DNA of 39,846 bases from an uncultured Candidatus Saccharibacteria bacterium (lineage in GTDB: Bacteria; Patescibacteriota; Minisyncoccia; 2-02-FULL-40-12; IGHO2-01-FULL-4-A), in assembly GCA_964423175.1 (NCBI GenBank), contig CAYRDM010000001.1, positions 1-39,846 on the forward strand. The letters are read 5' to 3'. Both the position numbers and the translations under genes were made by a program. Below, piece after piece: positions 5,087 through 35,925 of the stretch. Under the pieces are notes generated by a model that was given only the letters and a program-made list of their open reading frames with translations, made no database searches and had not been told where the DNA came from. Positions within the stretch are counted from its first letter, which is position 1. Each line of letters starts with the position of its first letter.

Positions 5087-5172
5087 TGGCGGAGGGTGTG
5101 GGACTCGAACCCACGAGGGATTGCTCCCGCACGCTTTCCAAGCGTGTGCCATAGCCGCTAGGCGAACCCTCC
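5087..5172 (-). tRNA. tRNA-Ser (anticodon GGA), CCA encoded
   Basis: Reverse complement folds as a cloverleaf. Acceptor is GGAGGGT/ACCCTCC; anticodon stem CACGC/GCGTG with loop TTGGAAA. It has a long variable arm, T-arm GTGGG-TTCGAGT-CCCAC, discriminator G and CCA. Confidence 0.9.
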
Positions 5173-19458: not shown

Positions 19459-20742
19459 ATGAATGGGCTCAATCCAAAACAAATCCCGCAGGAAAGCGGG
19501 GTATATTTTTTCAAAGACGACAAAGGCAACATCCTTTATATAGGAAAGGCTTCAAATTTAAGGAATCGTGTTTCCTCCTATTTTAAGGTTAGCCAAACGA
19601 ACAGCAGAATAGTTAAAATGCTCGAAACCTCTACTAACGTTACATGGCAGATAACAGCGTCAGAAATAGAAGCCCTCATCCTGGAATCCCAGTTAATCAA
19701 AAAAAACAAACCCCCTTTCAATGTAATGCTTCGTGATGATAAGCAGTATTTTTATGTCGTATTCACAAACGAAACTTTTCCAAAAATTTTTCTAACCCAC
19801 CAGCCCCAATCTCAAGATTCACTTGGAAAAAATAAAATAGTCGGACCCTTTACCGACGGGCTATCTCTCAAAACCACCTTGCGACTGTTGCGCAAGATTT
19901 TCCCCTATTGTTCCTGCAAACAAAAACATAACAATTTTTGTTTAAATTATCATATTGGCAAATGTCTTGGTTTTTGCTGCCTCAAAAATCCAAAAATAAA
20001 GCAGGGAGAAGTCCAAGAGTATCAAAAGAACATTTTGGCAATTAAAAACTTATTATCGGGTAAAAAGAATTCACTGATAAAGGCATTCGAGAAAAAAATG
20101 AATGAACTCGGAGAATCTGGTGACTTCGAAAAAGCAATTGAATTAAGAGATAAGATTTCAAAACTTAAAAGAATCTTTGAAAACGCTTTGATTTTGAGAA
20201 CGGCCAAAGAAACAAATTTTTATGACACAAACAATCCGACGCTTAAAAAAATAAAAACAATATTAAAACTAGGATCAATCCCCCAAAGAATAGAGGGTTA
20301 TGACATCTCAAACATTCAAGGAAAAATGGCAGTGGGCTCTATGGTCGTCTTTACCAATGGCCAACCAGACAAAAAAAATTACCGCAAGTTTAAAATCAAA
20401 TCGTCCCAAAGCCCAGATGACACCGCCATGCTTAAAGAAGTGTTGGTCAGGAGATTCAAACATCCAGAGTGGGATTTTCCTCATTTGATATTAATAGATG
20501 GCGGCAAAGGCCAACTCAGCGCGGCGGAATCCTGCGTTCCAAAAAACATCTCTATAGTTGCGCTAACAAAAAATGACAAGCACAGAGGCGATCACATTTA
20601 TGCAGCCAAACAAAAAGCGGCTATGCCGCTTGAAAAATTATCATCTGACGTACACAATCTTTTACTCCTTATAGACTCGGAGGCACACAGATTCGCAATT
20701 CGATATTATAGAGAACTCCACCTTAAAAACCAGAAAAGCTAG
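19459..20742 (+). CDS. uvrC: excinuclease ABC subunit C (UvrC), short form without the C-terminal (HhH)2 domain
   Basis: GIY-YIG domain (GVYFFKDDKGNILYIGKASNLRNRVSSYF), Cys-rich region, UVR motif (FEKAIELRDKISKLKRI), and endonuclease domain (IEGYDISNIQG ... DSEAHRFAI). It ends right after that domain. TTG 19444 is an alternative start. Confidence 0.85.
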   Translation: MNGLNPKQIPQESGVYFFKDDKGNILYIGKASNLRNRVSSYFKVSQTNSRIVKMLETSTNVTWQITASEIEALILESQLIKKNKPPFNVMLRDDKQYFYVVFTNETFPKIFLTHQPQSQDSLGKNKIVGPFTDGLSLKTTLRLLRKIFPYCSCKQKHNNFCLNYHIGKCLGFCCLKNPKIKQGEVQEYQKNILAIKNLLSGKKNSLIKAFEKKMNELGESGDFEKAIELRDKISKLKRIFENALILRTAKETNFYDTNNPTLKKIKTILKLGSIPQRIEGYDISNIQGKMAVGSMVVFTNGQPDKKNYRKFKIKSSQSPDDTAMLKEVLVRRFKHPEWDFPHLILIDGGKGQLSAAESCVPKNISIVALTKNDKHRGDHIYAAKQKAAMPLEKLSSDVHNLLLLIDSEAHRFAIRYYRELHLKNQKS

Positions 20743-21266
20743 TTGCAAAAATTCTCTGGCAAATCAAGTTTTTTGAATTTTAGTTTTCTCAACTTAACGG
20801 GCTTGGTCAACGTTTCAACCTCAGCAACCTCAATTTTTTCTAAATATGCTTGAAGTTGTCTGCAAGTACCAAACTCCGCAAACAAACCGATGGGCATCCA
20901 ACACCAACCCTTTAAGTTAGAGGAATTCTTAGAATATATAGAACTCTTATCTCTCGCTAAACAAAAAGATTCATAATGCTGATCGTTTGAAGAAGTGAAA
21001 CTAATCCTTCTTCCAAAAGCACTTCCATTTCTAAATGTTAAGCTTTGGGCCAAATGGAAGCTCTCACGACTACCACCCGGAATAACCATCAGTCTATGGT
21101 GTTTTGGAAGATCTCTTTTTATCAAAAACAGCCCACCGCTATTTGGTACTACCTTTATACTCTGCCCCTCATCTTGAACTGTCTGTGCCACAACTAAGTC
21201 ACTCTCAAAAAAAGGACAAATAAGAATCGCCAAAACGCAAGTAAACCCTGGGATCCAGGATTTCAT
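20739..21266 (-). CDS. secreted hypothetical protein
   Basis: ATG 21266 follows GGAGG by 6 nt. It has an N-terminal signal-like hydrophobic segment. The 4-nt convergent overlap with the uvrC stop is noted. Confidence 0.5.
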   Translation of the reverse strand: MKSWIPGFTCVLAILICPFFESDLVVAQTVQDEGQSIKVVPNSGGLFLIKRDLPKHHRLMVIPGGSRESFHLAQSLTFRNGSAFGRRISFTSSNDQHYESFCLARDKSSIYSKNSSNLKGWCWMPIGLFAEFGTCRQLQAYLEKIEVAEVETLTKPVKLRKLKFKKLDLPENFCN

Positions 21267-21359
21267 CAATTACCTCCTCTTCTAATATAAAAGAACAACT
21301 AATTGTCACATAAATTTATATTTTAGTCAAGTCTAAGCACCTGTTTAACGCCCGGAAAT

Positions 21360-21810
21360 AAAAAAACCGGGTCCCGTCTCGCGACAGTACCCGGCGGTTT
21401 GGCTGTTGTGTTCTAAATCAGGATCAGCCCGGTTCTAGCCCATATGGGTATTCCCGATAGCAGGAACCGGAAACGTTGTCCGCTCACGGCGTTAGTCCAC
21501 CGCCTGCGACTATCGTTTCATCCTTGGCTTTGGGGGCTTATATCCCCCGCGGTTGTCCGCCTCCGCAATGGTCATATCAGAACGAACCTCCATCTTTCCC
21601 AGCCCGGCCCGATGAACCTCATCGTCCGGGAAATAACAACCAACGCATGCCGTGTAATTCTAAGCGGCTATTCGAACCGCGTCACGGCACCACAACAAAC
21701 CTATTTACCACCGCTGCGGCCGACCTGCCGAGGAGGAATTCCTTTTCGGGGGTGGCCAAGCGTCTGCATTCGGCTCATCGTACCTCCATAATGCCGGCTT
21801 CCAACCTTAT
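21360..21810 (-). ncRNA. unclassified, highly structured G+C-rich RNA of about 450 nt (island 1)
   Basis: Bounded by a consensus promoter and a strong terminator. There is no minus-strand ORF of 60 codons or more. Many nested helices are present, for example 21683-21689/21648-21654, 21626-21630/21603-21607, and closing helix 21801-21806/21396-21402. Family not assignable by eye. Confidence 0.6.
21367..21394 (-). terminator. intrinsic terminator of the island-1 RNA
   Basis: Minus strand CCGGGUACUGUC-GCGA-GACGGGACCCGG (11 bp, 1 mismatch, GNRA loop) followed by U7. Confidence 0.8.
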
Positions 21811-21816
21811 TTATTA

Positions 21817-21845
21817 ATTATAGCATAATTATGATATTATGTCAA
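21817..21845 (-). promoter_or_regulatory. consensus extended -10 promoter of the island-1 RNA
   Basis: Minus strand TTGACA (21840-21845), 17-nt spacer, TGc-TATAAT (21817-21822). Predicted +1 near 21810. Confidence 0.75.
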
Positions 21846-21889
21846 TATTGGCCGGCCGGTCTCAAAATGGTAGAGTAAACAATAGCTAA

Positions 21890-22225
21890 ATGGGCATTAT
21901 TATAGGCCTTTTTTCTAATATATTGGCTCTATACCTAGCCAACTTATGGGTAAGTGGTTTTGGTGTAGTTAACGGCTGGAAGGGTTACTTAATAGCGGGT
22001 ATAGTCTTGGGAATACTTAATTTTATACTGAGGCCATTGCTTAAAATAATAAGCTTCCCCCTCATAATAGTATCCCTCGGCTTGTTTTTAATAGTTATAA
22101 ATGCAATCATTCTCTGGCTAGCGGCCAGATTTACTGGATATATAATTATTGATAATAATATCGCTCTGCTTGAGGCAACACTTGTAATTGCTGCGGTTAA
22201 TTTTATCGCACACTGGTTTAAATAA
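21890..22225 (+). CDS. phage holin family IV / DUF360-type 4-TM membrane protein
   Basis: 111 aa. LNFILRPLLKIISFPLIIVSLGLFLIVINAIILWLAA matches the DUF360 core as I recall it. Confidence 0.65.
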   Translation: MGIIIGLFSNILALYLANLWVSGFGVVNGWKGYLIAGIVLGILNFILRPLLKIISFPLIIVSLGLFLIVINAIILWLAARFTGYIIIDNNIALLEATLVIAAVNFIAHWFK

Positions 22226-24449: not shown

Positions 24450-24533
24450 GGGCGTGTGGCGGAACTGGCATACGCGTACGCTTCAGGAGCGTATGAGAGC
24501 AATCTCTTGAGGGTTCAAATCCCTCCACGCCCA
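24450..24533 (+). tRNA. tRNA-Leu (anticodon CAG), CCA not encoded
   Basis: Acceptor GGGCGTG/CACGCCC; anticodon stem TACGC/GCGTA with loop TTCAGGA. It has a long variable arm, T-arm GAGGG-TTCAAAT-CCCTC and discriminator A. Confidence 0.9.
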
Positions 24534-24544
24534 CAGAATTATTT

Positions 24545-25009
24545 TTGACACAAGAAAAACCGAAAATCATATTGTTCGATTCTTATGTTCAAGCGATTAG
24601 AAACAGCGTAAATTCGCGTTTATTTAGAAACCTTTATATTAATTATTCGGGCAAGAAAGAAGATGTCCTAGAAAATGGCCGCTTCTCTTGTGCTGTATTT
24701 GTTTCCTCGGTTTTATATCTTTATAAATTAATTTCCGATGTCCACGCCACAGTAGCTGGCAGTGTAACGGATCTTGAAAAATCCGGATGGGAACAAATAC
24801 CCAAGCCTGAGATTGGCTCTGTTATTGTTTGGGAAAACCACCAATCAAATGAAGGTCACAAACATATCGGTTTCTATATAGGAGAAGATAAAGCGATAAG
24901 CAATAGTTCGAAGAAAAAACAACCAATTTTGCACCATTGGACCTTTGGAACAAAAAAAGGCCAACCTGTTCGCAAAATAGAAAAAATATTATGGAAGAAA
25001 ATAAAGTAG
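24545..25009 (+). CDS. hypothetical protein, possibly an NlpC/P60- or CHAP-like Cys-His hydrolase
   Basis: TTG start 11 nt after the tRNA. Candidate catalytic Cys (RFSCAVFVSS) and His (HKHIGFYIG) appear in the papain-like order. Weak assignment. Confidence 0.4.
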   Translation: MTQEKPKIILFDSYVQAIRNSVNSRLFRNLYINYSGKKEDVLENGRFSCAVFVSSVLYLYKLISDVHATVAGSVTDLEKSGWEQIPKPEIGSVIVWENHQSNEGHKHIGFYIGEDKAISNSSKKKQPILHHWTFGTKKGQPVRKIEKILWKKIK

Positions 25010-26871
25010 AAGTGGGCTTGGCATCAGCTAAGTCTGAAAACAATACAACGAGTACTGAACGCCCTCAAAATCAAAAAAGGCGCTCCCGATCACCTAGGTA
25101 CAAAGACCGCAGGGATTTGCCACGCCCAAGACGTCTTGTCCCCTTATTGGACAGACCGGAAAAAAGAGAAGGTTCAAGTTCTGAAGACGAAACACTCAAA
25201 ATTATTCCGCTGGGAGGTTTAGGTGAGGTAGGTAAAAACATGTGTGTAATAGAATACAAAGAAGACATCATGCTAATCGATGCTGGTTTTGGATTCCCAG
25301 AAGAAGACATGCCGGGCATTGATTATACCTTGCCGAATATTTCCTATCTCGACGGCAAACAGGACAGAATCAGAGGCCTAGTAGCAACACACGGGCACAT
25401 GGACCACATAGGAGGCATCCCCTACCTTATAAACCGCCTTGGCAATCCTCCAATATATGCTGCCAATCTGACCAGAGGTCTAATAATAAAAAGACAGCAA
25501 GAGTTTCCACATCTTCCGGAACTAGATGTTAATCTGGTTCACCCCGGAGATGTAATTAAACTAGGTCATTTTGAAGTAGAATTTTTCCACGTTAACCACA
25601 ATATTCCTGACGATACTGCTGTTATAATCACAACACCAGCTGGAAGAATAGTTCACACAGCCGACTTTAAATTCGACCCCAAACCATTAAACGAAGAGCC
25701 CGTTAACTTAGACTTCATTAAAAGCATCGGTGACAGAGGTATTTCGGTTTTGATGTCAGACTCAACAGGCGCAGAAAAAGAAGGCAAATGTGTTTCTGAA
25801 AGCGTAATTCAAGATAACATAGAAAAAATATTCCAAGAGGCAAATGGCATGATAGTTGCTGCCACATTTTCCTCAATCATCAATCGTATTCAACAGCTTA
25901 TTACTCTTTCCGAGAAATACGGCCGCAAAGTAATCTTTGATGGTTTTAGTTTAAAGAGCAACGTCGAGATAGCCAAAGAGTTCAATCAAATAAAAATCCA
26001 AAAAGAAACTCAAATTCAAATTGGAGAAATAGACAAATACCCAAGATCAAAAATCACTCTCATCGGCACAGGCGCTCAGGGTGAAGAAAGAGCTGTTTTG
26101 ATGCGCATAGCATCAGGTGAGCACAGATATGTCCAACTGCAAAAGAAAGACTCTATTATCTTTTCCTCTTCCGTCATACCGGGCAACGAAAGAACAGTCC
26201 AAAGACTGAAAGATTTACTATATAGAATGGGAACCAAGGTTTATGACTACAACATGATGGACATTCACGCTAGCGGTCATGCCTATAAAGAAGACCTCAA
26301 GCAAATGATTAGACTCATACAACCCAAAGCCCTAATGCCGATACACGGACAATACTCCATGATGGTTAATCATGGCTATCTAGGGAATCAGGAAGGAGTT
26401 AAAGAAGAAAATACAATAATCGCTGACAACGGTTCAATAATCCATGTCTTCGATCCAAAATTTGCCAATCACAAAGAACCGATAAATTGGTGGTTCGATA
26501 AAAAAACAGTGCCTTCAGACACTATAATGGTTGACGGCCTTGGCATTGGAGATATTGGCAACGTAGTCTTGCGCGACAGACAAGTCTTGGCTGAAGATGG
26601 AATGTTCGTAATCATAGCCTTGATAGATTCAAAAACTGGCAAAGTCAGAGGCAGTCCGGATATCATATCCAGAGGATTCGTGTATCTAAAAGAAAACAAG
26701 GAACTTCTCTCTCAAGTAAGAAAGAAGATCAAATTTACTATCGAACGCAAAACAACTCGCCCAATAAACTGGGTCGACTTAAAAGACATCTTGCGAGACG
26801 AAGTTGGTCTATTCCTATTCCAAAAAACAGAGAGGCGTCCGATGGTATTACCAGTAATAATAGAGATCTAG
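24991..26871 (+). CDS. rnj: ribonuclease J with an Arg/Ser-rich N-terminal extension
   Basis: Metallo-beta-lactamase HGHMDHIGG motif, beta-CASP and C-terminal domains. The ATG at 24991 overlaps the upstream gene by 19 nt. The first roughly 75 aa are low-complexity and basic. Confidence 0.9.
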   Translation: MEENKVEVGLASAKSENNTTSTERPQNQKRRSRSPRYKDRRDLPRPRRLVPLLDRPEKREGSSSEDETLKIIPLGGLGEVGKNMCVIEYKEDIMLIDAGFGFPEEDMPGIDYTLPNISYLDGKQDRIRGLVATHGHMDHIGGIPYLINRLGNPPIYAANLTRGLIIKRQQEFPHLPELDVNLVHPGDVIKLGHFEVEFFHVNHNIPDDTAVIITTPAGRIVHTADFKFDPKPLNEEPVNLDFIKSIGDRGISVLMSDSTGAEKEGKCVSESVIQDNIEKIFQEANGMIVAATFSSIINRIQQLITLSEKYGRKVIFDGFSLKSNVEIAKEFNQIKIQKETQIQIGEIDKYPRSKITLIGTGAQGEERAVLMRIASGEHRYVQLQKKDSIIFSSSVIPGNERTVQRLKDLLYRMGTKVYDYNMMDIHASGHAYKEDLKQMIRLIQPKALMPIHGQYSMMVNHGYLGNQEGVKEENTIIADNGSIIHVFDPKFANHKEPINWWFDKKTVPSDTIMVDGLGIGDIGNVVLRDRQVLAEDGMFVIIALIDSKTGKVRGSPDIISRGFVYLKENKELLSQVRKKIKFTIERKTTRPINWVDLKDILRDEVGLFLFQKTERRPMVLPVIIEI

Positions 26872-31474: not shown

Positions 31475-31884
31475 AAAAGACCCAGGGAGGGGTCTCGGCC
31501 AGCGGATGGAGCACACCGGCCTAAAACTAGCACCTCTCCCCGGGTTGGGTCGTGGGAACAAAGGAATCCAGCTGTGGCAGTCATACACGTCATCCGCTGG
31601 CGATGCGTGCAATCTTGATACGAACTTACGCGTTTCTTACTTGATCCCTGCCTGTTGGCTCGGGGTATTGGGCAAGTTCGTAGAAGCGAAGACTTAAATT
31701 AAAGAACGGGAGGGTCGGCTTTCGGGCCAATTTCACCGACCCCCTTTTTTTTGTTAGCAGCATGCTTTTTTGATCCATGGGACACTTCCCGGGTTATCCC
31801 AGGCGCATGGGCCTTGCCTGCGACTATGGGGTAACTTGCGGCGGGGCCTAACCGGGCCCTTTCACCGCAGTCCTAACCTTAGCT
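31475..31884 (-). ncRNA. rnpB: structured G+C-rich RNA of about 410 nt (island 2); probable divergent RNase P RNA (type A-like)
   Basis: Own promoter and terminator. There are collinear matches to E. coli M1 RNA as I remember it:
- AUAGUCGC + hairpin (31820-31827);
- GGGAUAACCCGGG (31788-31800);
- CAACAG (31652-31657);
- GGGAUCAAGUAAG (31636-31648);
- AUGACUGCCAC (31574-31584);
- CACGACCCAACCCGGGG (31538-31554).
A 10-bp end-closing helix pairs 31873-31882 with 31521-31530. Not verified with a covariance model. Confidence 0.5.
31712..31752 (+). terminator. hairpin plus T8 inside island 2; reads as a plus-strand intrinsic terminator (possible murC terminator)
   Basis: GGGTCGG (31712-31718) / CCGACCC (31736-31742) followed by T8 (31745-31752). 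On the minus strand the same hairpin is preceded by A8 and lies inside the RNA. Confidence 0.45.
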
Positions 31885-31890
31885 TTCTCA

Positions 31891-31920
31891 ATTGTAGCAC
31901 AATTATTAACCAAGTGTCAA
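31891..31920 (-). promoter_or_regulatory. extended -10 promoter of the island-2 RNA
   Basis: Minus strand TTGACA (31915-31920), 18-nt spacer, TGc-TACAAT (31891-31896). Predicted +1 near 31884. Confidence 0.7.
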
Positions 31921-35334: not shown

Positions 35335-35925
35335 TTAGCACATACGTGGCCGCCGCGGAGGAACGAAGGCCGGGCGCCGGGTTGGCGTCGTGATGAGTTC
35401 GCGTCGCATGAGCCGGCTCTTCTCGTCGCTCTGCTTTGGTGGCAACAAGCGGGATTTGCTTATTTCCTCGCTGCCGCCACAACCATCGCTAGCGTAAGGA
35501 TGCATGACCCGTGGAAAGGGTGGCACCGGCAAGCCGGCGGCCCAAGTCACGTCGACATGTCCAGTGAGATTGAAGACCCTTGCCTTGGCGGCGACGAGAC
35601 GTCCGCCCATCAAATCGTGCGTTACGTTGATGACTCCGCCGGCAAGTTCCTCGCAAGAGGCCTTCAGCTTACCGTTGACCGGAGCAAACCGATCACGGAT
35701 AGCTCGAATAAGATTCTCATTGTGAGTAACGAAACCGGCGTTATCCAGATCCGTGCTCGTCACCGAGAGGGACACACGGAATTGGCCATCATAGCCACCG
35801 CATACGTTATCGTCGGCGAGGTCAGCCGGGACACTGAACTTCTTGAGAAACAGCGTAACCGGAACCAACCAATTGTGCACCTTTTCCTTATACACTTTGG
35901 AAAGCGAATCTTTCAGGTCAAACAT
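35335..35925 (-). CDS. orphan 196-aa protein encoded by a G+C-rich island (island 3); Arg/Pro-rich C-terminal tail
   Basis: AGGAGG lies 6 nt before the ATG, with its own consensus promoter and terminator. Codons end mostly in G/C (CTG, GTG, GAC, AAG, GCC), unlike the A/T-ending neighbours. No family recognised. Confidence 0.6.
   Translation of the reverse strand: MFDLKDSLSKVYKEKVHNWLVPVTLFLKKFSVPADLADDNVCGGYDGQFRVSLSVTSTDLDNAGFVTHNENLIRAIRDRFAPVNGKLKASCEELAGGVINVTHDLMGGRLVAAKARVFNLTGHVDVTWAAGLPVPPFPRVMHPYASDGCGGSEEISKSRLLPPKQSDEKSRLMRRELITTPTRRPAFVPPRRPRMC

Follow-up and report, generated by a model that had tools for sequence, protein, structure and literature searches.

The locus and its relatives

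The stretch of DNA analysed here (the window) is the 39,846-nucleotide (nt) contig CAYRDM010000001.1 of assembly GCA_964423175.1, deposited as an uncultured Candidatus Saccharibacteria bacterium. Its genes include those for UvrC, a PF04020 protein with four transmembrane (TM) segments, an SBP_bac_5 protein, RNase J (24937–26871) and a Mur ligase. Our subject is island 1, a G+C-rich unit on the minus strand between uvrC and the PF04020 gene, for which a transcript with its own promoter and intrinsic terminator is predicted (Table 1). A previous sequence-only reading had described a perfect TTGACA-17-TGcTATAAT promoter, an 11-bp GNRA-capped hairpin followed by U7 and, between the two, a G+C-rich stretch with no minus-strand open reading frame (ORF) of 60 codons or more. 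All of these were confirmed. The terminator hairpin (CCGGGUACUGUC-GCGA-GACGGGACCCGG, 21394–21367, with U7 at 21366–21360) has 11 pairs and one A·G mismatch, because of which a simple terminator scan misses it. The two halves of the RNA have G+C contents of 0.54 (5′) and 0.575 (3′), with 56% over its full length, compared with 0.40 for the whole window, and the island region contains no minus-strand ORF of even 40 amino acids. The sole ORFs of that size across it are two on the plus strand, of 113 and 115 amino acids, both without a Pfam match. The whole RNA is more stable than dinucleotide shuffles (z −3.18, 0/100), and this signal resides in the 3′ 207 nt (z −4.40, 0/200 shuffles as good).

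Table 1. Features of island 1 in window coordinates. MFE, minimum free energy; CM R1, the covariance model described in the text; H1, H2, Pa, Pb, Pc, H5 and H6, helices.
Feature	Position	Strand	Basis or variation
Sigma-70 promoter with extended −10, TTGACA-17-TG-n-TATAAT (TGcTATAAT)	21817–21845	−	Promoter scan score 12/12
Predicted primary transcript, ~450 nt	21360–21810	−	Span from promoter to terminator; start predicted near 21810
Conserved 5′ leader, AAGGUUGGAAGCCGGC..AUGGAGGUACG-AUG	21776–21806	−	Aligns with L130, L127, L145, L136 and L023 leaders
25-codon ORF, MSRMQTLGHPRKGIPPRQVGRSGGK	21701–21778	−	Reading frame only, predicted
Probable H-type pseudoknot module	21690–21755	−	Pairs checked by script, three relatives
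Window-specific hairpin, GUGCCGUG...CACGGCAU enclosing GCGG-UUCGAAUAG-CCGC	21647–21690	−	MFE fold
Window-specific hairpin, CCCGG-A-CGAUGA-GGU-UCAUCG-GG-CCGGG	21603–21630	−	MFE fold; 3′ end is the border of the alignable region
Conserved 3′ module (H1, H2, Pa/Pb/Pc, H5, H6, terminator), ~205 nt	21362–21566	−	CM R1, covariation, MFE z
H1, GCGG-AGGCGGACAA-CCGC	21549–21566	−	C-G to G-C in L084 and L135
H2, GGGGG-AUAUAAG-CCCCC, then conserved AAAGCCAAGGA	21532–21548	−	GGUGG/CCACC in L001
Extended hairpin, Pa GAAACG/CGUUUC, Pb UCGC/GCGG, Pc GGC/GCC	21470–21519	−	Covariation
H5, long hairpin with internal loop	21430–21469	−	Double changes in 7/10 pairs
H6, GGCUG...CAGCC, conserved loop ..UCCUG..AGAACACAAC	21401–21429	−	Double changes in 4/5 pairs
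Intrinsic terminator, 11-bp stem with 2x2 internal loop, tip GUC-GNGA-GAC, U7	21360–21394	−	Sequence read and comparison

UvrC relatives in GTDB genomes were all found in Parcubacteria/Paceibacteria, mostly Yanofskybacteria (best identity 61%); the source of the window is a Yanofskybacteria-like Parcubacterium. Where the uvrC 3′ end faces the PF04020 gene, about 13 relatives, referred to below by locus handles beginning with L, carry a homologous unit on the opposite strand. The order in carrier loci is uvrC 3′ end, RNA and then the divergently oriented PF04020-secG-SBP genes. In most relatives, only the convergent uvrC 3′ end lies downstream of the RNA. In the window, a 176-amino-acid ORF (20739–21269, minus strand) with a hydrophobic N-terminus sits between the RNA terminator and uvrC; it has no Pfam match and is missing at the same position in all relatives examined. 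Both the position and a consensus promoter are shared by the window, L001/L129, L002, L084, L127, L130, L134–L137 and L145, and every family member has this promoter architecture together with a ..AGCAAAtaTTGAC motif upstream of it. Pairwise nhmmer comparisons linked the window, L001, L127, L084, L002, L135, L028, L023, L130, L137 and L134 into one network.

Unit length ranges from 117 to ~660 nt across the relatives: 117 nt in L002/L097, 237 nt in L001/L129, 329 nt in L137, ~330 nt in both L084/L006 and L135, 336 nt in L028, 341 nt in L134, ~410 nt in L130/L132, 439 nt in L136, 576 nt in L023, ~650 nt in L145 and 662 nt in L127. The smallest retains only H5, H6 and the terminator, with ~115 nt conserved. 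A metagenome search with the pattern GGGAATACCC-N45-75-GTCGNGAGAC gave 65 matches, only three of which (L084, L097 and L127) were genuine, the others arising by chance within G+C-rich coding DNA.

The 3′ module and the 5′ half

Evidence for a conserved RNA structure is strongest in the 3′ module. CM R1 was seeded with the window, L001 and L127, its structure being taken from RNAalifold and inspection, and was searched over 714 kb. Matches spanned E-values, from a short calibration, of 1e-56 to 3e-4. The seeds scored 204.8 (window), 233.8 (L001) and 220 bits (L127), and independent matches were seen for L084 (71 bits, E 1e-15), L002 (32.3 bits, E 7e-6) and L135 (25.8 bits, E 3e-4). L130 was matched in its terminator region only (E 0.13). 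The conserved part can be extended from ~205 to ~250 nt (21362–21603); nhmmer alignments of L127 and L084 reach 21602/21603.

In the six-sequence alignment, 93.3% of pair cells are standard pairs and 29 of 52 pairs have changed on both sides. None of 500 column shuffles attained any of five covariation measures, and sliding the 3′ partners by 1–3 columns gave 36–46% pairing with double changes in 1–5 pairs. The L002 5′ end, which is promoter, was spuriously aligned to H1 and H2; after masking, 27 of 52 pairs were compensatory and 93.2% of cells paired. Such compensatory evolution of the helices indicates long-term selection on RNA structure. Nucleotide identity of the module to L001 (77%) is higher than that of the flanking uvrC and PF04020 genes (67–68%), suggestive of purifying selection. 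Loop lengths of 9/25/14 nt and 10/11/9 nt in orthologues differ by indels that are not multiples of three, and hence no reading frame is conserved on either strand.

Individual helices vary in sequence around fixed loops. Pa is GAAGCG/CGCUUC in L001, ACGGG/CCCGU in L127 and GGACG/CGUCC in L084, and the Pa/Pb/Pc internal loops GAuAGUCGCAGGCGG and GCCGUGAGCGGA are invariant. The H5 tip GGGAAUACCC (21446–21455) is likewise invariant, and its complement occurs in the window at chance-level counts. H6 takes the forms GGCGG/CCGCC, GGCAG/CUGCC, GGUGG/CCACC, GGAGG/CCUCC and GCGGA/UCCGC in relatives. Serial local hairpins, rather than one long 6S-like rod, are favoured by the covariation. This arrangement alters several pairings proposed from the sequence. 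The segments UCCGGUUC/GAACCGGG, suggested as a possible pseudoknot, form the base of the covarying H5 by ordinary nested pairing. The end-closing GGUUGG/CCAAACC helix overlaps the covarying H6 by two bases and lacks its 5′ partner in L001 and L002, and is therefore unsupported. The suggested GCGG-ACAA-CCGC hairpin survives as a window-specific alternative to H1; relatives pair the outer GCGG with CCGC, giving H1 a loop of 10 nt (9–11 in relatives) in place of an ACAA tetraloop. The GGGGG/CCCCC hairpin was correctly recognized and corresponds to H2.

Two further observations concern these helices. The word GCGGACAAC occurs twice in the window, in the H1 loop (21552–21560) and in the Pa internal loop (21475–21483). 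It is species-specific, the doubled word being GGAAGA(A)C in L001, GGAAA(A)C in L127 and GAU(A/C)AAC in L084, and could reflect parallel evolution of two sites for one partner or an internal duplication. Circular permutation, considered because AAGCGAGAG lies on one side of H5 in L002/L084 and on the other in L001, was rejected, since the alignment places these copies in the H6 loop and in Pa, respectively.

On sequence comparison, the 5′ half is a fast-evolving, lineage-specific accessory region that is not alignable as a whole. Its leader carries a Shine-Dalgarno (SD) sequence, GGAGG, at 21783–21787 and an AUG at 21776–21778, and the 25-codon ORF previously proposed behind GGAGG is present. 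The ORFs that follow the shared start comprise 25 (window), 8, 86, 87, 98 and 97 codons, are unrelated in sequence and gave no match in a Pfam search. Across the family GGAGG occurs 21 times compared with 9.5 expected from shuffles (z ~4), a post-hoc count over related sequences. Two AUGGAGGU sites in the RNA are candidate contacts for the 30S subunit.

Downstream of the start lies the probable H-type pseudoknot, in which S1 pairs CCACC (21751–21755) with GGUGG (21708–21712) and S2 pairs CCGCAGC (21713–21719) with GUUGUGG (21690–21696). An A-rich linker, UAAAUAGGUUU, separates the stems, and the linker GUAAAUAAGUA is conserved. S2 differs in sequence and is still complementary in L084 (GCUGG/CCAGC), L135 (CUGCUG/CAGCAG) and L028 (CCGCUA/UAGCGG). 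The window copy has a 31-nt insertion in loop 1 that defeats MAFFT alignment of the region, and script-checked pairs were used instead. The remaining hairpins of the 5′ half had also been noted from the sequence and are present: a 7-bp helix, UGCCGUG/CACGGCA (21689–21683 with 21654–21648), and CGAUGA-GGU-UCAUCG extended by CCCGG/CCGGG (21630–21603). No homologue of the former hairpin (21647–21690) was found in relatives.

A second type of 3′ domain was observed in L023, L028, L130, L145, L134 and L137. All that the two types share is a pair of neighbouring hairpins with AAAG after it, plus the terminator tip GUCGNGAGAC; the form GUC-GNGA-GAC is kept in nearly all members. In the L023 type, pairing links the first hairpin's loop to GAAGAN 3′ of the third hairpin (alignment columns 20–25/85–90), with compensatory changes in 5/6 sequences: loops AUCUUU, GUCUUU, GACUUU and ACCUU pair with GAAGAU, GAAGAC, GAAGUC and AAGGU, respectively. 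Lying just upstream of the terminator, this covarying pseudoknot resembles an aptamer. RNAs of L023, L028, L130/L132 and L145 also contain, in their interior, a conserved strong SD and a mini-ORF (MPG*, MKPG*, MTAKPG* and MT*, ending ..CCAGGUUGA), whose length differences are all multiples of three, and which we predict to be a start-stop-like ribosome-binding element. L127 (655–1316, minus strand) and L145 (1650–2305), from the same aquifer well, share a 5′ part (the leader and an 86/87-codon ORF) of ~88% nucleotide identity and end in 3′ domains of the window type and the L023 type, respectively. Modules have therefore been exchanged.

Readings of the RNA

No known RNA family accounts for island 1. 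When the whole window was compared with Rfam 15 by cmscan at gathering thresholds, the only matches were two transfer RNAs, tRNA-Ser(GGA) (5087–5172, minus strand) and tRNA-Leu(CAG) (24450–24534, plus strand), the same two that ARAGORN reported. A permissive scan of both strands of 21250–21950 (701 nt, E ≤ 10) yielded only noise, the best match being the terminator against an unrelated small RNA (sRNA; E 0.43). Models for RNase P, tmRNA (including permuted forms), the signal recognition particle (RF00169/RF01854) and 6S RNA (RF00013) were silent there, and those for OLE, ROOL, GOLLD and raiA gave no match. Nor was a family found in related loci, nine of which were scanned at E ≤ 5 and twelve at gathering thresholds. 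No description of such an RNA in the Candidate Phyla Radiation (CPR) was found in the literature. Comparison of the loci gives a discrete, predicted promoter-to-terminator unit with syntenic homologues and compensatory evolution in at least six helices and one pseudoknot, whose core has no conserved reading frame and no Rfam membership. Of the new large non-coding RNA (ncRNA) class suggested from the sequence, the covarying RNA gene without an Rfam match stands, and the size and breadth do not: the family is smaller in its conserved part (~205–250 nt), narrower in distribution (a Parcubacteria subclade) and more modular than a 450-nt class.

We favour, with some reserve, the reading that island 1 is an independently transcribed and terminated structured ncRNA gene of an undescribed family, confined to a Yanofskybacteria-like Parcubacteria subclade and acting in trans. 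The 3′ domain would be its functional unit. As the terminator is strong and in most carriers there is nothing downstream to regulate, a trans-acting role is probable, and the likeliest forms of it are the RNA component of a ribonucleoprotein and a regulator. The invariant purine-rich internal loops and hairpin tips may provide recognition surfaces. The 5′-proximal SD might recruit 30S subunits or ribosomes, which could keep RNase J off the 5′ end, as the STAB-SD of the Bacillus cryIIIA leader does, or translate a short, non-conserved peptide. Points of likeness to STAB-SD are GGAGG near the transcript 5′ end, an RNase J-encoding host (the gene lies in the window, in favour of this reading) and a following sequence for which translation is not required. 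Here, unlike in STAB-SD, a start codon follows the SD at short spacing, and the likeness is an analogy for the leader only.

Several points weigh against this reading. The covariation comes from six sequences in an alignment fitted to the model. The window lineage has no close relative (next UvrC 61% identical), so the 5′ 200 nt have no direct comparative support, and folding of the 5′ 246 nt does not stand out from shuffles (z −1.22, 18/200 as good). The gene is lacking in the equally close L139/L140, L141, L142 and L004, which have PF04020 or secG as the next gene after uvrC; the RNA is therefore lineage-restricted and dispensable. The conserved SD and start, together with an in-frame indel in the L127/L145 ORF, would also fit a coding or dual function. 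We only infer the trans-acting ribonucleoprotein mechanism and the STAB-SD-like role, and no partner protein or target for the RNA was found. RNAduplex comparison with all translation-initiation regions of the window gave unrealistically long duplexes and no usable ranking.

A bolder version of an RNA gene is possible, if distinctly less probable: a new modular, pseudoknotted RNA class specific to CPR, with independently folding domains exchanged between strains as cassettes (the 5′ pseudoknot and the two 3′ types, one of them aptamer-like) and with ribosomes engaged through the SD/start and the start-stop elements. Were this so, island 1 would be a ribosome-associated or ligand-sensing riboregulator without a counterpart in cultivated bacteria. 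Among large orphan RNAs, OLE, ROOL, GOLLD and the raiA motif are also G+C-rich, structured, lineage-restricted islands in A+T-rich genomes with unknown or emerging functions. OLE adjoins the gene of its membrane-protein partner, and the RNA here adjoins that of a 4-TM membrane protein; the PF04020 gene also occurs in RNA-less relatives, however, and the linkage may thus reflect position only. Unlike those RNAs, island 1 matches none of their Rfam models and has a much smaller core (115–250 nt).

It appears unlikely, although there is more in favour of this than of the readings that follow, that island 1 has a dual function or is the mRNA of a small protein with a long structured 3′ untranslated region. 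The leader, SD and start would drive translation, and the 3′ domain would stabilize or regulate the message or act separately, as in Staphylococcus RNAIII. The encoded peptide would have 25 amino acids here and 86–98 in some relatives. Leader, SD and start are kept in the window, L130, L127, L145, L136 and L023. The L127 and L145 ORFs (86/87 codons) are 80% identical, retain their start and stop positions and differ by one in-frame 3-nt indel, with a dN/dS of ~0.49, and the L023-type members keep an SD and a mini-ORF with indels in threes. However, the ORFs behind the shared start differ in length, are unrelated and have no Pfam match, and L001, L002 and L084 lack such an ORF while retaining the 3′ domain. 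Substitutions between L127 and L145, the only pair close enough for comparison, are spread evenly over codon positions (9/10/11), and the result for this pair as a whole is ambiguous. Long ORFs also arise by chance from G+C-rich DNA in an A+T-rich genome, as seen for the 113 and 115 amino acids on the opposite strand. RNAIII itself is alike in size (~450–500 nt), strong promoter, modular multi-hairpin fold and 5′ small ORF behind an SD, and its 3′ domain including the terminator hairpin is best conserved, with 5′ and central parts varying by species. It differs in having no sequence or structural homology to island 1 and no Rfam match here, in that island 1 has a non-conserved ORF and no quorum-sensing context, and in using C-rich loops that pair with SDs, where the conserved loops of island 1 are purine-rich.

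We consider it improbable that island 1 is a cis-acting leader or conditional terminator, whose structure would sense a signal and govern read-through, into the 176-amino-acid gene (21269–20739) in the window and antisense into the convergent uvrC in relatives, much as riboswitch-controlled antisense RNAs do. A same-strand ORF does follow the terminator directly here, with the uvrC 3′ end in that place in relatives, and the L023-type module has its aptamer-like covarying pseudoknot immediately 5′ of the terminator. Yet the terminator is strong (11 bp and U7), no conserved anti-terminator alternative was seen, and the 176-amino-acid gene, which is absent in relatives, has a promoter-like site of its own (21330–21302). 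A consensus constitutive promoter and a length range of 117–660 nt would also be unusual for a leader.

That island 1 is left over from, or carried by, a mobile or recombining cassette inserted between uvrC and PF04020, with no host function, seems slightly less probable again. The patchy distribution, with absence from L139/L140, L141, L142 and L004, agrees with it, as do a G+C content well above the genome average, the module swap between L127 and L145 and an unrelated repeat adjoining the RNA in L130, L145 and L023. Orientation, promoter and position are nevertheless identical in all carriers, the helices have evolved in a compensatory manner, and neither terminal repeats nor a recombinase was found. 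Likeness to phage, plasmid and viral collections was also lacking: phage and plasmid blastn gave no match, and of two viral-contig scans one returned 0 matches and the other 2 chance matches in coding sequence.

There is little to recommend a CsrB/RsmZ-like sponge that titrates a CsrA-type protein through GGA loops. CsrB, CsrC, RsmY and RsmZ share with island 1 a stand-alone series of hairpins, an ending in a terminator hairpin and large variation in length between lineages, and several loops here carry GGA, for example CCAAGGAUGA and AGGCGGACAA. GGA is not enriched, however, with 14 observed against 12.5 expected in the window RNA and 102 against 106 in the family (z −0.6). Its density is ~3 per 100 nt; that of CsrB is roughly double. 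The hairpins of island 1 are distinct, individually conserved and accompanied by pseudoknots, in contrast to one repeated unit. With CsrA of E. coli and of B. subtilis as queries, tblastn found no homologue in the window and related loci, which cover a few percent of each genome.

The suggestion that island 1 is an RNase P RNA or tmRNA in rearranged or circularly permuted form can hardly be maintained. It is comparable to them in size, also has a strong promoter and a high G+C content, and shares a few 8–12-nt words with them (CUAGAACCGGGCUGAUC, CAACAGCCAAACCGCC, AUAGUCGCA and GGUUCGAAU). RNase P models RF00010 and RF00011 had no match at gathering thresholds or at E ≤ 10 (21250–21950), and the CR-I/P4 5′ strand GAGGAAAGUCCGGGC is not present anywhere in the window with up to 3 mismatches. 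The word GAACCGGGCUG, which resembles CR-V (ACAGAAcCCGGCUUA), consists of the H5 3′ strand and the H6 5′ strand, both in covarying helices with local partners of their own; the motif resemblances noted earlier are chance words. For tmRNA, neither ARAGORN nor the covariance models RF00023 and RF01849–RF01851 (permuted) detected a tRNA-like domain, and the T-loop-like GGUUCGAAUAG is a 2-mismatch word at chance frequency. In the window, the frame after AUAGUC-GCA reads AGGGLTP*; in L001 and L127 it continues and meets no nearby stop. Indels in that stretch are not multiples of three, and no tag frame is kept. Relatives that shrink to 117 nt or lack the gene are, moreover, incompatible with an essential housekeeping RNA.

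Setting and other islands

CPR bacteria, or Patescibacteria, account for a large part of the diversity of bacteria. Hardly any have been cultivated, and their tiny genomes contain few known regulators. To our knowledge, their ncRNA repertoire beyond rRNA and tRNA is essentially uncharted. Island 1 exemplifies an RNA with a strong promoter and a conserved structure that genomes of ~1 Mb have retained, and that changes through the gain and swap of structured modules. The family supplies a covariance model for scans of metagenome-assembled genomes, a defined transcript to seek in groundwater metatranscriptomes and invariant loops as bait for partners. If the 3′ domains bind a ligand or the ribosome, it would represent a new RNA class; otherwise it would be one more lineage-specific sRNA.

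Some of the related loci also contain a repeat of ~135–180 nt with a perfect 14-nt inverted repeat, CCGTCAAAATTGTG...CACAATTTTGACGG (L130 4264–4444, L132 1673–1853, L145 2341–2475, L023 5068–5203 and L004 5786–5853). It adjoins the RNA terminator in some relatives, lies elsewhere in others and is absent from the window. This element could be a miniature inverted-repeat transposable element or another small RNA.

Two more G+C-rich islands were seen in the window. Island 2 (31477–31920, minus strand) has a promoter, TTGACA-18-TGnTACAAT (11/12), and a terminator, with a predicted RNA of ~410 nt (fold z −2.28), and no match in Rfam 15. It was rejected as a paralogue of island 1: the two share only the 12-mer AUAGUCGCAGGC, and CM R1 and nhmmer profiles of both 3′ types miss island 2, which is probably a separate orphan ncRNA. 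The third patch (35335–35925, minus strand, G+C 0.59) coincides with a 196-amino-acid ORF without a Pfam match and has the appearance of a protein gene of foreign composition, not of an RNA.

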